Shown here: in pieces, positions 4,136 to 8,424 of the stretch | Numbering within the stretch: the first letter of the stretch is position 1 | Layout: each line of letters begins with the position of its first letter | The notes under the pieces: model-generated | Told to the model about the DNA's origin: nothing | The model's input: only the letters and a program-made list of their open reading frames with translations | The model's database searches: none | Assembly: GCA_965226165.1 (NCBI GenBank) | Contig: CBDDCI010000002.1 | Coordinates: 656-64,655 of the forward strand | DNA: 64,000 bases | Direction of reading: 5' to 3' | Source of the DNA: Mycoplasmatales bacterium | GTDB taxonomy: Bacteria; Bacillota_I; Bacilli_A; CBDATW01 | Program-made: the position numbers and the translations under genes

Positions 4136-4339
4136 TCATGATAGAATTTTTAGGCCTGATCCTTTAACAGATTTTAAACCTTTTGCTTTTTTAACATTAG
4201 ATAATCCTGATGCTTTTTTAACAGTTGATAATCCAGATGCTTTAATAATTTTTTTTTCTAACATATTTTTATTTTTATCATTTGAAATAATAACGCCATT
4301 AACAATCATAATATATACTATATCAACATAATATTTCAT
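4136..4339 (-). CDS. Small Lys/Gly-rich basic protein with K(A/G)SGL repeats. It is a candidate core/DNA-condensing protein.
   Basis: 67 aa ending KASGLSTVKKASGLSNVKKAKGLKSVKGSGLKILS. A positional homolog lies between the ATPase and the MCP candidate in all copies. Confidence 0.45.
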   Translation of the reverse strand: MKYYVDIVYIMIVNGVIISNDKNKNMLEKKIIKASGLSTVKKASGLSNVKKAKGLKSVKGSGLKILS

Positions 4340-4958
4340 TAAGATTTTTTCTTATTTGGAATTTTTCAATAGGAGTTTTTAAATCTATAATAATATTTTC
4401 ATATTTATTTAATTCTGAAGCAATTTTATAAAATAATTCTTTATTAATATTAATTGGTTGATCAATGTATATTTGAGATAATTGATTTTTAGGAATTTTA
4501 AATAATATTATATAATTTACATTTAATCTTAATGTTTTTGACATTTTGAAATATGAATGTGCTAAAAAGAAATTACTACAATTTTTCTTTTGAGAACGAA
4601 TAAACCAATCCATAATTTTTTTATCGTCTGATAATTGATCATCAAATATACAGCATGTTTGTAAATTTCCTTTAATTAAAGAATCTAGATCATATTCATC
4701 ATTTTGATAAAAAATTTTTACATCATGGGGAAATTTCTTTAAAAGAAAATTATATTTTGCTTCAGCTTCTTTTGTAAATATAAAAATTTTTTGAAAAACT
4801 GGATTCAATGTTAAAATATTGAATAATAGGTTAGTTTTTGAACATCCTGTTTTTCCAATAATAATTGTATTACTAACATGCTGGGGTGTAAATACTGATT
4901 TGTTTATATAATTTTCATTATTTTTATTAACTATGTCATCAAAGTTTATGATTTTCAT
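4323..4958 (-). CDS. FtsK/HerA-superfamily (A32-like) DNA packaging ATPase.
   Basis: Walker A IIIGKTGCSKTN, and a Walker B-like CCIFDDQ. About 88% identical to copy 2 29245-29883. Confidence 0.8.
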   Translation of the reverse strand: MKIINFDDIVNKNNENYINKSVFTPQHVSNTIIIGKTGCSKTNLLFNILTLNPVFQKIFIFTKEAEAKYNFLLKKFPHDVKIFYQNDEYDLDSLIKGNLQTCCIFDDQLSDDKKIMDWFIRSQKKNCSNFFLAHSYFKMSKTLRLNVNYIILFKIPKNQLSQIYIDQPININKELFYKIASELNKYENIIIDLKTPIEKFQIRKNLNEILC

Positions 4959-4967
4959 TATATATAA

Positions 4968-5336
4968 TTAGAATGTATTTATTACAGATAATTTATTTGT
5001 CAATTTATCATAAAGATGGTTTATTTCATCATTATTTAGTTCTTTGTAAGTCGTTGATTTATAATTCAATTGCTCTTTCAATAAATCTTTTTTTAGTTTA
5101 GTTATATTTAATCTAATGTCAACATTTGAATTATGTTTAATAGAATCTATAATGGGAATCAAAATCATCGATAAAATAGCAAAAATATTTAAAAATGATA
5201 ATCCAGTAGCAACAGATAAAATAGCTACTTTTGAAATTTCAAAACTGTATTTACAAATTTTTAATTTTCTATGTTTAATTTTTTCATTGATTAATTGATT
5301 TTGAATATCTTTAAATAATTTTTCTAATTCAGCCAT
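4968..5336 (-). CDS. Small transmembrane protein, 122 aa.
   Basis: Central hydrophobic segment VAILSVATGLSFLNIFAILSMILIPII. The C-terminal tail NHLYDKLTNKLSVINTF is identical to the copy 3 homolog (40349-40717). It is only distantly similar to the copy 2 homolog. Confidence 0.5.
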   Translation of the reverse strand: MAELEKLFKDIQNQLINEKIKHRKLKICKYSFEISKVAILSVATGLSFLNIFAILSMILIPIIDSIKHNSNVDIRLNITKLKKDLLKEQLNYKSTTYKELNNDEINHLYDKLTNKLSVINTF

Positions 5337-5342
5337 ATATAA

Positions 5343-6035
5343 TTAATGAATATAAACAGATATGCTAAAATAATCAGTCATTTCTATTTTATTACTTTTT
5401 TCATCTAAAAATTCAAATTCAATGTAATTAAAATTATCATTAATTATTTTTTGCTTTTTAAAAATTGATGGTTCAGTATAAACAGTAAGTTCAGCTAATC
5501 CAGATTTTATAAATACATTACTGAGATAATAAGGATTATTTTTGTTGTCAATAACATTACAATATATTTTTAAATAATTAATAGAATTGATCTGTGGAAC
5601 TAAATCAGATCGTTGTAAATATTTTCTTAATATTTTATCAGAAAATCCTAACATTTTAGAAAAGTTATCATCCAAATGTAATTCATAACCGTCTTCAATT
5701 AAAACGATTATTTTAAACGTGTTAATATCAGTTAAAATTGATATTATAGGAGTATCATCTTCTGTTAATAATTCGTGTCTTATTAATTCATTGTTAAGAA
5801 TTTTATTAATATCAGCTACTTCTAACATACTATCTATAAATGTTATTGTATAAAATGCATTATCCTTTTTTACTTTCATTTGATAAGATTCTTTAACATT
5901 ATGAAAGAAATTGTAAAATATTGCTTGCGTTAAACTCATAAATGAATTATTGAATCTGATAGGACTTTTAAATTCATATCTTAATTTATTTGAATCTAAT
6001 TTATGTTCATTACTATTTAAAATGAATTCAGTCAT
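5343..6035 (-). CDS. Conserved 230-aa protein, a candidate minor capsid (penton) protein.
   Basis: About 80% identical to copy 2 28156-28848. The conserved C-terminus MTDYFSISVYIH is also present in copy 3 (39653-40342). Confidence 0.55.
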   Translation of the reverse strand: MTEFILNSNEHKLDSNKLRYEFKSPIRFNNSFMSLTQAIFYNFFHNVKESYQMKVKKDNAFYTITFIDSMLEVADINKILNNELIRHELLTEDDTPIISILTDINTFKIIVLIEDGYELHLDDNFSKMLGFSDKILRKYLQRSDLVPQINSINYLKIYCNVIDNKNNPYYLSNVFIKSGLAELTVYTEPSIFKKQKIINDNFNYIEFEFLDEKSNKIEMTDYFSISVYIH

Positions 6036-6039
6036 ATAT

Positions 6040-7038
6040 TATATATTTATAATTTATTTATAATGTTTTGATATTCTTTTTTAGAAATTTTATTATTTTT
6101 ATAATTATTGTATAACATTTCATTTATTTTGTTATAAAGGTCCTTTGATTTGTTTCCTGCTAAATAACTTGATATTGATAAGTTTAATTTATCATTTTTT
6201 CGATATTTTTGTAAAGCATTATAAACATCGTATTAATTTTTACTCAATTCATTTATATTTTATTTTTTAATATAGCATTTTTCATATTGTTAGATATTTG
6301 ATAATCGTCTTTTGATAAATCATTATGTATTTTCCTATTATTTGAAATATATCTAACTTTTAAAATACTTTTTTTCAAAAGGTCTTAATTAATTTTTATT
6401 TTACTATATTCTTGTCCTAATATATTTTCTACAGTTTTTGATAAATTATCTTTTAATTTAGGCATTAAAGATTTTTTAGAACTTGATGGTAATGATTTTG
6501 ATTTTTTTGTTATATCAATATTTCTAAATTTTTCAATATCATCCATAGCATTTTTATATTCGTCATAATCTATTGTTATATCTTTTAAATTATTATTAGT
6601 TTTATAAATATTATTAATATTTTCTCTATCTGATCTTCCTATTTCTTTATTGTTTTTAATAGAATTCATTATAGATTCTAAACTGACTTCATCAATATTT
6701 TCATTTCTTGGTTTATATAATGAAGCATGCTTATATTTTATATAAACATTTTTAACAAAATTTAAAACTGATTCTTTATCATTACTATGAATACTAAGTA
6801 ATTCACCATTATTTTTATTAATTTTGTTAGATAATTTATCTGTTAATTTTTCAATATATTTATTTTCTTTATCTAATTTTTTTTCTTCGTCAATAATATC
6901 ATTTATATCATTTTTATAATTTTTTTCTTCAAAATTTTGTAGTAATTCAGTATCTTTAAAAGTTTTTGCAAAAGTATGTTGCATATTATCTAATAGTTTT
7001 TTATAATCTTCAACTGATATTTCTTTAAAAGTAGTCAT
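6040..7038 (-). pseudogene. Lys/Asn-rich conserved protein gene (homolog of 27047-28141). Its C-terminal third is frameshifted.
   Basis: The 217-aa ORF 6385-7038 matches the N-terminal part. The conserved C-terminal block ILKVRYISNNRKIHN...SYLAGNKSKDLYNKINEMLYNNYKNNKISKKEYQNIINKL is found at 6040-6385 broken by stops. Confidence 0.5.
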
Positions 7039-7139
7039 TATATATCATATATCAATATTTAATTTGTGTCATTGGTTTTTTATAAATTGTGTCATTTTTA
7101 AGTATAAAATTTTATTTTTTGGTGTCATACATATTTCAT

Positions 7140-8424
7140 TTATATGTCATTTTATAAGTATTTTGTTATGTCAGATTTATTAACCCATTGGTTAAAATCA
7201 TTTGAATATCCTTTAAATTTTACATATACTTTATTTTTATTAGTTTTTGATATTTTTTTTTATTGTGTATAAATCATCTTGTTTAGTTTTTTGTAGCTCT
7301 TGTTCATAAAAAGTACCATCTAATTTTTCATTATTTAAATCTTTTAAATAATAATATGGAACGTTGCTATATTTAATACCATATATTACAAATATTTCTT
7401 GAGTCCAATTTGTTTCATAACCTTTTTCAAAAATATTTTTTCTAAAGAAATTCTAACTCTATCTCCAATTTTAAATTTTCCTAATTTTTTAGTTTTTTCA
7501 AAATTATAAATATTTTCTTTTCATTAACTTTTTTAGGTCCTTCTATAGGAGTCATTTTTATTATTGAATGATATTAATTATTGTAATTGTTGACTAATTC
7601 ATCTAAAATATTATAAAATAATGTATTATTATTTTCAGTAGATTTTTTATACATCATATTTTTAAAAGTTCTGTTAAATCTTTCTACTACAGCTGATTTT
7701 ATTTCAGAATTATTAGTTGAATATAGTTTAATATTATTTTCATTTAATAAATCTTGTACTTGTTTATTATAAAATTCTGTTCCTCTGTCTGTCCATAAAA
7801 AATTTGGTTTTCTTTGTTTAAATATTTTTTCTAAAGCGTTTTTTTAGTAATTCCTCTTTTGTCTTTAAGAGGAATAACCCAAGCAAATTTTGAAAATATG
7901 TCAATACATGTTAGAAGGTATCGATATCCTTTGTTTAATTTAGCAAATTTTTGCATTTCTACCAAATCTGCTGCAAAAATTTCATCTGTATGGTTAACAA
8001 TTATTCTACGTCTAGGATAATTTTTCCGTTTAGATTTATGTAGTTCTTCAGATAGAATTTTATTGTGATTTTCTACTCCTAATCCAAGTTTTCTTTTTGA
8101 TCGTATAATATTTTTAACAAGAAAAGTTCCGTATTGTTGTTGATTATACGGTAATTCGTTAATAGCTTTTATCATTTTTTCATCTGCAATGTGTTTGTCT
8201 TTTAAATTTTTTGCTAGAGTATAATCAACATCATGCTGAGAACATATTTCATCTGTTTTTCCTGTTGGATTTTGCATGTATCTTAAGATATTTCCATTTT
8301 TATCATAAATCAATTGCTTGTGTAATGGGTTATGTGCTCCACAATAATTCATATTTGGAAGGGCAAACCCTCTTTTAGGTATCATTGGTAATTTTCCAAT
8401 AGCTTTGTGTATATCGATTGTCAT
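7140..8424 (-). pseudogene. Retroviral-type (rve) integrase with a C-terminal chromodomain, disrupted by several frameshifts.
   Basis: ORF 7831-8424 carries DLVEM...YRYLLTCIDIFSKFAWVIPLKDK (first two catalytic Asp). Downstream frames give LWTDRGTEFYN...KSAVVERFNRTFK (catalytic Glu region) and KNKVYVKFKGYSNDFNQW (chromodomain). Confidence 0.7.

Follow-up and report, generated by a model that had tools for sequence, protein, structure and literature searches.

The 64,000-nucleotide stretch of contig CBDDCI010000002.1 (assembly GCA_965226165.1) analysed here, hereafter the window, holds three AT-rich copies of a Polinton/Maverick element, termed c1, c2 and c3, whose genes lie at or near the coordinates given in a preliminary description of this DNA. 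Our main finding is that different genes of these elements have different nearest relatives among the three copies. Judged from sequence comparisons that include further copies, it is very probable that diverged lineages of one Polinton family have repeatedly exchanged whole genes or blocks of genes.

Protein identities between the copies were obtained with tblastn. For the packaging ATPase, c1 and c2 were 87.7% identical at the amino acid level and c2 and c3 39%; the corresponding values were 74.8% and 38% for a 230-amino-acid (aa) protein, and 66.2% (75% at the nucleotide level) and 31% for the major capsid protein (MCP). The protease of c1 was 80% identical to that of c2 and 44% to that of c3. 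The integrase gave another picture: the N-terminal 197 aa of the c1 protein showed 40.6% identity to c2 and 35.8% to c3, while the integrases of c2 and c3 were 72.9% identical to each other; beyond these residues, the c1 integrase contains frameshifts and its identity is 37-49%. The transmembrane (TM) protein gave a third. Here c1 was 72-75% identical to c3, with which it shares an identical 18-aa tail, INHLYDKLTNKLSVINTF, and 38% identical to c2 over 104 aa; no tblastn match was found between the TM proteins of c2 and c3, and the c1 protein was 88.5% identical to that of L001, one of nine further loci introduced below. The protein-primed DNA polymerase B (pPolB) was about 70% identical between c2 and c3, and the c1 gene lies beyond the window. 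The pPolB block stands on the minus strand beside the integrase in c2 (20404-24983) and on the plus strand at the far end of the element in c3 (45463-49972), and is thus relocated and inverted. Every direction of relationship in the preliminary description proved right, including the distant c1 integrase, the affinity of the c1 TM protein to c3 and the inverted, relocated pPolB of c3. Its figure of 80-90% identity between c1 and c2 held for the ATPase but was too high for the 230-aa protein and the MCP.

The same switches appeared in triplet informative sites, counted as c1=c2/c1=c3/c2=c3. The integrase gave 147/109/316 and the TM gene 34/93/30, whereas the ATPase gave 195/22/33, the 230-aa gene 183/63/56 and the MCP 350/139/94. 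The heterogeneity between genes was highly significant (chi2 = 647, p = 1e-125), as was the difference between the TM gene and its two flanking genes (Fisher p = 1e-30), and sliding windows showed the same changes of nearest relative.

Boundaries of the transmembrane-protein cassette

In c1, the TM gene (4968-5336, minus strand; class A, 122 aa, with a hydrophobic stretch at about residues 33-65) lies between the gene of the 230-aa protein (5343-6035, minus) and that of the A32-like packaging ATPase (4323-4958, minus). The cassette measures 370 nt, and its breakpoints fall within about 30-60 nt of the start and stop codons. In 90-nt windows, the identity between c1 and c2 was 0.70-0.81 over most of the 230-aa gene, 0.44-0.69 from 5336 to 4968 and 0.82-0.92 in the ATPase, with a rise from 0.44-0.56 to this level at the downstream junction, and that between c1 and c3 followed the opposite course. 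The junction alignment revealed that c1 and c2 are nearly identical along the final 40 nt of the preceding gene and in the intergenic ATTATATAT(A), cannot be aligned from the TM start codon on, and become similar again at AT(T/A)ATATATA-ATG ahead of the ATPase. The upstream junction of c1 is the intergenic TTATAT (5337-5342, minus), which follows the 230-aa gene, conserved at its 3' end, and precedes the ATG, and the downstream junction is the intergenic TTATATATA (4959-4967, minus), ahead of the ATPase ATG. The AT(T/A)ATATATA-ATG motif borders the cassette on both sides. The two classes of TM protein (122-125 aa) are clearly homologous, with 38% amino acid identity. These alignments indicate that exchange operates at the scale of a single gene, and the gene-level granularity proposed in the preliminary description can be located at the cassette edges.

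TATAT or ATATA was present at most 9 nt upstream of 52% of the starts of open reading frames (ORFs), compared with 7% of the remaining ATGs (odds ratio 15, p = 8e-40). The spacers between genes measure 6-15 nt, and start codons mostly abut TATATA(A), for example at 28846-28857, 29236-29244 and 30077-30088. The TATATA lies at too short a distance from the ATG to be a nuclear TATA box. It resembles a late-promoter motif of asfarvirus relatives (PMC5974111), and it could also be a host or a translational signal. The poxvirus-type late promoter TAAATG was considered and rejected: it coincides with 5-6% of the ATGs in c2 and stands ahead of none of the listed gene starts.

Module combinations and their origin

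Database searches yielded 324 homologues of the ATPase and 1750 of the TM protein, and among the matches listed all came from ENA. Nine ENA homologues were looked up, and all nine belonged to assembly ERZ25073769; nine more loci from this assembly (L001-L009) were added to c1-c3 to give 12 elements. Against the best 120 of the 1750 matches, the c1 TM protein was 86-100% identical, and nearly all of these were 122 aa long. Very probably, the elements are members of a single AT-rich Polinton/Maverick family of very large size, whose copy number in the source assembly is well above one thousand. Identity matrices were calculated for the 12 elements, and neighbor-joining trees with bootstrap on p-distances were built for nine of them.

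The capsid block, consisting of the 364-aa protein, the 230-aa protein, the MCP and the downstream genes, fell into six lineages: a1 (c1, L001, L007), a2 (c2, L002), a3 (L004), b (L003, L006, L009), g1 (c3) and g2 (L005, L008). TM class A was found in a1 and both g lineages, and class B in a2, a3 and b. In the trees of the 230-aa protein and the MCP, a split with 100% bootstrap support separated c3, L005, L003 and L006 from the rest, while in the TM tree an equally supported split separated c1, L001, c3 and L005 from the rest. These two splits cannot fit one tree, which by the four-gamete criterion indicates recombination. The per-gene trees are thus incongruent, in agreement with the recombination between lineages that had been proposed in the preliminary description. 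An explanation without recombination, in which rate differences among genes, pseudogene decay or misalignment would produce the pattern, might draw on the frameshifts in c1 and c3 and on an AT-rich background that inflates identity to about 50%. However, rate differences alter branch lengths and not the nearest copy, and here the nearest copy switches with 100% bootstrap support, with 75% versus 53% nucleotide identity inside the 370-nt cassette and the opposite pattern in its flanks, so this explanation is extremely improbable.

Integrase and pPolB also occurred in two types each. Integrase type I was combined with pPolB type P2 in a1 and L006/L009, and type II with P1 in a2, L003 and c3. At the nucleotide level, L003 was 84-89% identical to L006/L009 in the capsid genes (88-89% to L009) but 48-49% in pPolB, and the integrases of L003 and L009 were 61% identical. 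P2 (L001, L006, L007, L009) and P1 shared 26-27% of amino acids and 48-50% of nucleotides, a distance as great as that between different families. This distance would fit the capture of some modules from outside, either from an unrelated Polinton family or from a virus; the second pPolB type would be the main candidate, with one integrase type as a further possibility, and a pPolB swap in nematode Polintons provides a precedent (PMC10748475). We regard such capture as possible but doubtful: it would still be recombination, and it leaves unexplained the TM and ATPase cassettes, in which both classes are homologous and circulate within the family; ATPase scans of IMG/VR and JGI metagenomes found no outside relatives.

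Other parts of the elements reassort as well. In L005 and L008, the PLA2-like part of the integrase is like type I and the core like type II, which represents a sub-genic swap; the ATPase of these two elements is 85-90% identical to that of L004 at the nucleotide level, and the c3 ATPase is 57-61% identical to that of every other element. The p195 gene of L007 is nearer to that of L002 than to that of c1. At least seven module combinations were present among the 12 elements, and all four combinations were found for TM class with integrase type, for TM class with capsid lineage and for integrase type with capsid lineage. The pPolB block had four arrangements. In c2 and L002-L004 it occupies the left end (minus strand), in c3 the right end (plus strand), in L001, L005 and L007 the right end as well (minus strand), and in L006 and L009 a position upstream of the integrase (plus strand). 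Sub-terminal regions have been shuffled too, since positions 8738-9093 of c1 are 86-88% identical to c3 and L002 and absent in c2. The sub-terminal regions of c1 and c3 also have short tandem repeats in common, with 15-nt GGAAAATTTTTTTT-like and 11-nt units (9048-9202 and 36730-36911; 9401-9675 and 50316-50514).

Each mosaic pattern recurs in copies that are 85-95% identical (c1/L001/L007 and c2/L002; c3 with L005/L008 more distantly), and that of c1, L001 and L007 is common to all three at 85-93% nucleotide identity. Thus, the exchanges are older than these insertions, and c1-c3 are not each other's partners. Because the mosaic types are multi-copy, diverged and largely open-reading, the recombinants were transmissible and multiplied afterwards. 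The recurrence also bears on mis-assembly. A coverage of about 4-6x in a highly repetitive family could in principle lead to chimeric contigs, but the same patterns were found on independent contigs with 5-15% divergence, the junction flanks (55-80% identical) are too different for an assembler to join, and the insertion of c2 shows both a clean target duplication and an empty site; the chance that mis-assembly produced the mosaics is therefore very slight.

Under the explanation that we favour, at least four units would reassort independently, namely the integrase with its pPolB type, the capsid block, the packaging ATPase and the TM gene, and we hold this explanation as a whole to be very likely. 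Genomes of different lineages would meet in the same cell and exchange genes, either through template switching or through recombination that is homologous or guided by microhomology, with the junctions provided by conserved gene ends and by the short AT(T/A)ATATATA-ATG motif found ahead of most genes. Recombinants with intact genes would afterwards be the only ones retained by selection, and c1-c3 would be descendants of such recombinant lineages. Different lineages have been active in one genome, as indicated by the recent insertion of c2 in a terminal repeat of c3.

Alternatively, ectopic gene conversion or unequal recombination could have taken place between chromosomally integrated copies and not between replicating viral genomes. 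With more than 1000 copies in one genome, some of them adjacent and nested, the opportunity for such events would be ample. Yet the flanks of donor and recipient are only 55-65% identical around the TM cassette and form a poor substrate, the breakpoints lie at gene boundaries, and the recombinant types are multi-copy with largely preserved ORFs, as if the recombinants had stayed transmissible. We therefore consider a chromosomal origin of the exchanges unlikely.

Several points weigh against the favoured explanation. The role of the motif as a recombination junction is inferred from one well-resolved cassette, and selection for intact genes alone would also place the surviving breakpoints at gene boundaries. 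The sequence is compatible with exchange during replication as well as with exchange in the chromosome. The sample comprises 12 of more than 1000 copies, and the nucleotide alignments are AT-rich and partly saturated, which makes the deep branching order and the direction of transfer uncertain. In addition, the contig names give a coverage of about 4-6x for the source contigs (11.9x for that of L009), and at about 4-6x frameshifts and some substitutions may be errors. Single frameshifts split well-conserved genes (22346-22368, 40349-40716, 3846-3922), even in the young c2, and may reflect sequencing or assembly errors instead of pseudogenisation.

A more speculative possibility, to which we assign a low probability, is that these elements differ from ordinary nuclear transposons and are expressed and replicated by non-host machinery, for instance as virophage-like dependants of an AT-rich cytoplasmic giant virus. 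The basis for this speculation is the GC content of 19% against 28-40% in the flanks, the near lack of intergenic space and the TATATA abutting most starts. If it were true, the promoter motif would double as the microhomology for swaps, and every gene would be an exchangeable cassette.

Structure of the three copies and their surroundings

The c2 element is a complete Polinton of 17,285 bp (18389-35673, plus strand) with the termini AGTAG...CTACT and terminal inverted repeats of about 770-860 bp (18389-19157 and 34811-35673). The 98-100% identity of these repeats marks the insertion as recent. It is flanked by a 6-bp target-site duplication, GAAATT (18383-18388 on the left and 35674-35679 on the right), and an empty site with a single GAAATT is kept around 50719-50728 in the right terminal repeat of c3. 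The duplication and the uninterrupted target in the other repeat establish that c2 is nested in the left terminal repeat of c3. The outer part of that repeat (17490-18388, plus), 96% identical to the inverted 50719-51640, has been cut off by c2 from the c3 body (35680-51640, plus), which contains the inner left repeat, the genes from the integrase to the morphogenetic genes, the pPolB block and the right terminal repeat (50101-51640). The terminal inverted repeats of c3 are about 1.5 kb long and 96-98% identical. A target duplication was looked for at the outer ends of c3 (about 17494 and 51636), and none was found there.

The pPolB block of c2, of type P1, has four ORFs and adjoins the integrase, with an EsV-1-7 Cys motif upstream of pPolB. 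It matched Pfam PF03175 (E = 4.4e-27, 20404-22368) and PF19114, and its pPolB is about 70% identical to that of c3, 75% to that of L002 and 26% to that of L001 at the amino acid level. A 142-aa protein adjoining the integrase (25070-25498, minus) had a borderline Pfam match, at a value (4e-5) slightly above the threshold, to the C-terminal domain of the poxvirus telomere-binding protein I6. The c2 integrase (25594-26913, plus; type II) combines a weak PLA2-like N-terminus, an rve core and a chromodomain-like C-terminus, and is 85-88% identical to those of L002 and L003 in amino acids. Further to the right lie the class B TM gene (28858-29235, plus; 125 aa, with 77-82% amino acid identity to L002, L003, L004 and L006), the packaging ATPase (29245-29883, plus) and the MCP (30089-31285, plus; 398 aa). 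In c3, the type II integrase (37009-38343, plus) matched Pfam rve and Chromo and is 73% identical to that of c2, the class A TM gene (40349-40716, plus) is read across one frameshift, and the P1 block consists of several ORF fragments with 75% nucleotide identity to the inverted c2 20397-24727.

The c1 element (1-10206, minus) is partial, as the window edge cuts off part of it, and its ORFs follow an order from the integrase to fibre-like genes; over 555-6474, it is 77-83% identical to c2 at the nucleotide level. Its integrase, its MCP and its homologue of the c2 364-aa protein are interrupted. In the type I integrase (7155-8424, minus), the N-terminal ORF (7831-8424) carries the PLA2-like domain (PF08398, 7e-9), and the remainder is broken by frameshifts and one in-frame stop; the protein is 70% identical to that of L001, and the gene 80-82% to those of L001, L007 and L009. 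The homologue of the 364-aa protein (6053-7038, minus) is truncated to a 217-aa ORF, with amino acid identities to c2 of 42% (N-terminal part) and 74% (C-terminal part), and 88-89% nucleotide identity to L001 and L007. The 230-aa protein had no Pfam match and stands in the position expected for a minor capsid (penton) gene, a candidate role suggested by its position. The MCP gene (2929-4107, minus) is split into two ORFs (3922-4107 and 2929-3846) with 66% amino acid identity to c2 over 399 aa.

Between the ATPase and the MCP lies a small basic Gly/Ser/Lys-rich ORF (4136-4339, minus), the true start of which is probably an internal ATG. A small basic protein ending in GLKIL is encoded at this place in both c1 and c3 (41340-41560), and L001-L005 have ORFs of 50-58 aa there. 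By analogy with the adenovirus mu-like proteins reported in other polinton-like viruses (PLVs), it may be a DNA-condensing core protein.

The hallmarks of Polintons are present in the window. The protein-primed polymerase matched PF03175 in c2, with a homologous block in c3, and the rve integrase (PF00665) was detected in c2 (3e-11) and c3 (1.6e-10), the c1 copy being degraded. Long terminal inverted repeats were found in c2 and c3 and the 6-bp target duplication in c2. The packaging ATPase matched Pox_A32 (5.6e-8, on the c2 protein, to which the c1 ATPase is 88% identical), and an adenovirus-type cysteine protease matched Peptidase_C5 (5.5e-7). For the c2 MCP, an AlphaFold2 model from a 3-sequence alignment was too poor (pLDDT 50), and a 24-sequence alignment was used instead (pLDDT 78.5, pTM 0.80). 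In Foldseek, this model matched the MCPs of Sputnik, mavirus, PBCV-1 and an iridovirus (SGIV) with E about 1e-14 and probability 1.0, and also adintovirus and MELD-virus proteins. The protein is accordingly predicted by its modelled fold to be a double jelly-roll major capsid protein. A search of its profile against PDB sequences gave no match, and 122 relatives of this MCP family, mostly fragmentary, were found among 1.84 billion representatives. The N-terminus of the integrase is of the parvovirus PLA2 type, with an HD motif and, in c2, a YxGxG loop, and is fused to the rve core and the chromodomain-like C-terminus; its fit to PF08398 was good in the c1 type, weak in the c2 type and absent in the c3 type.

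The GC content is about 19% in the three element stretches, with 17-20% in the element bodies, about 25-30% in the terminal repeats and 28-40% in the flanks, a contrast that is unusual for long-resident nuclear repeats. At 9843-10206, 12009-12431 and 55523-56148, there are near-perfect palindromes of 360-640 bp. The first of these is 364 bp long and constitutes the outer end of c1. L001, which has this end as well, carries a similar unit in the same place (4496-4955); such a unit may represent a terminal structure of the hairpin kind or else a small foldback element. The flanking DNA also contains a tandem satellite (60145-62883) of about 23 units of 120 bp that are 60-85% identical, and decayed non-long-terminal-repeat-type reverse transcriptase fragments (52064-53296, minus; RVT_1, PF00078, 4.7e-8), which suggest a retrotransposon-bearing eukaryotic host. 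No matches were obtained when the window was scanned with Rfam and for tRNAs.

Comparison with known systems

The elements share with Polintons/Mavericks (Polintoviricetes, including the animal adintoviruses) the pPolB, the rve integrase, the A32-like ATPase, the adenain-like protease, the double jelly-roll MCP, the long terminal inverted repeats and the 6-bp target duplication. Unlike them, this family is extremely AT-rich relative to its flanks, and its MCP family has very few relatives. In addition, the PLA2-like domain is fused to the integrase N-terminus here, whereas adintoviruses have a separate PLA2X gene (PMC8502044).

Gene exchange has been described in several related systems. Within single genomes of Caenorhabditis briggsae and other nematodes, Polintons that are similar in other respects have unrelated pPolB genes, which was read as gene exchange between Polintons (Jeong et al. 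2023, PMC10748475). That study concerned pPolB only and left finer exchange as a possibility, whereas in the present family reassortment extends to the integrase, the ATPase, the small TM gene, p195 and the terminal regions, and a cassette boundary has been mapped. Entomopoxvirus-associated PLVs are mosaic with 'end modules' (Barth et al. 2024, PMC11296320), adintoviruses mix alpha and beta modules (PMC8502044), and replication and capsid modules have separate histories in cryptophyte PLVs too (PMC12220804). Separate module histories are thus shared with PLVs and adintoviruses, as are sub-genic domain swaps of the kind found in the L005/L008 integrase (PMC11296320, PMC8502044). However, those comparisons involved few and very distant genomes, while here many closely co-resident copies are compared and the exchange reaches inside the morphogenetic module.

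Several groups of eukaryotic DNA viruses are thought to have Polintons at their root, and module exchange is central to this view. Previous evidence for such exchange came mostly from comparisons of very distant genomes or was restricted to the polymerase gene. With hundreds to thousands of related copies in one genome, several co-existing lineages and boundaries at the nucleotide level, this family could allow the frequency, the sites and the partners of recombination among Polintons to be measured. In tailed phages, with their modular mosaicism, and in recombination between co-infecting adenoviruses, gene-sized cassettes, breakpoints at gene boundaries or at short conserved sequences marking them, and selection for functional recombinants are known as well; these are different virus groups, and their likeness to the present family would be mechanistic only. 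Module exchange among Polintons has already been published, and the family described here is a new, very clear and finer-grained example of it rather than a new element or mechanism.

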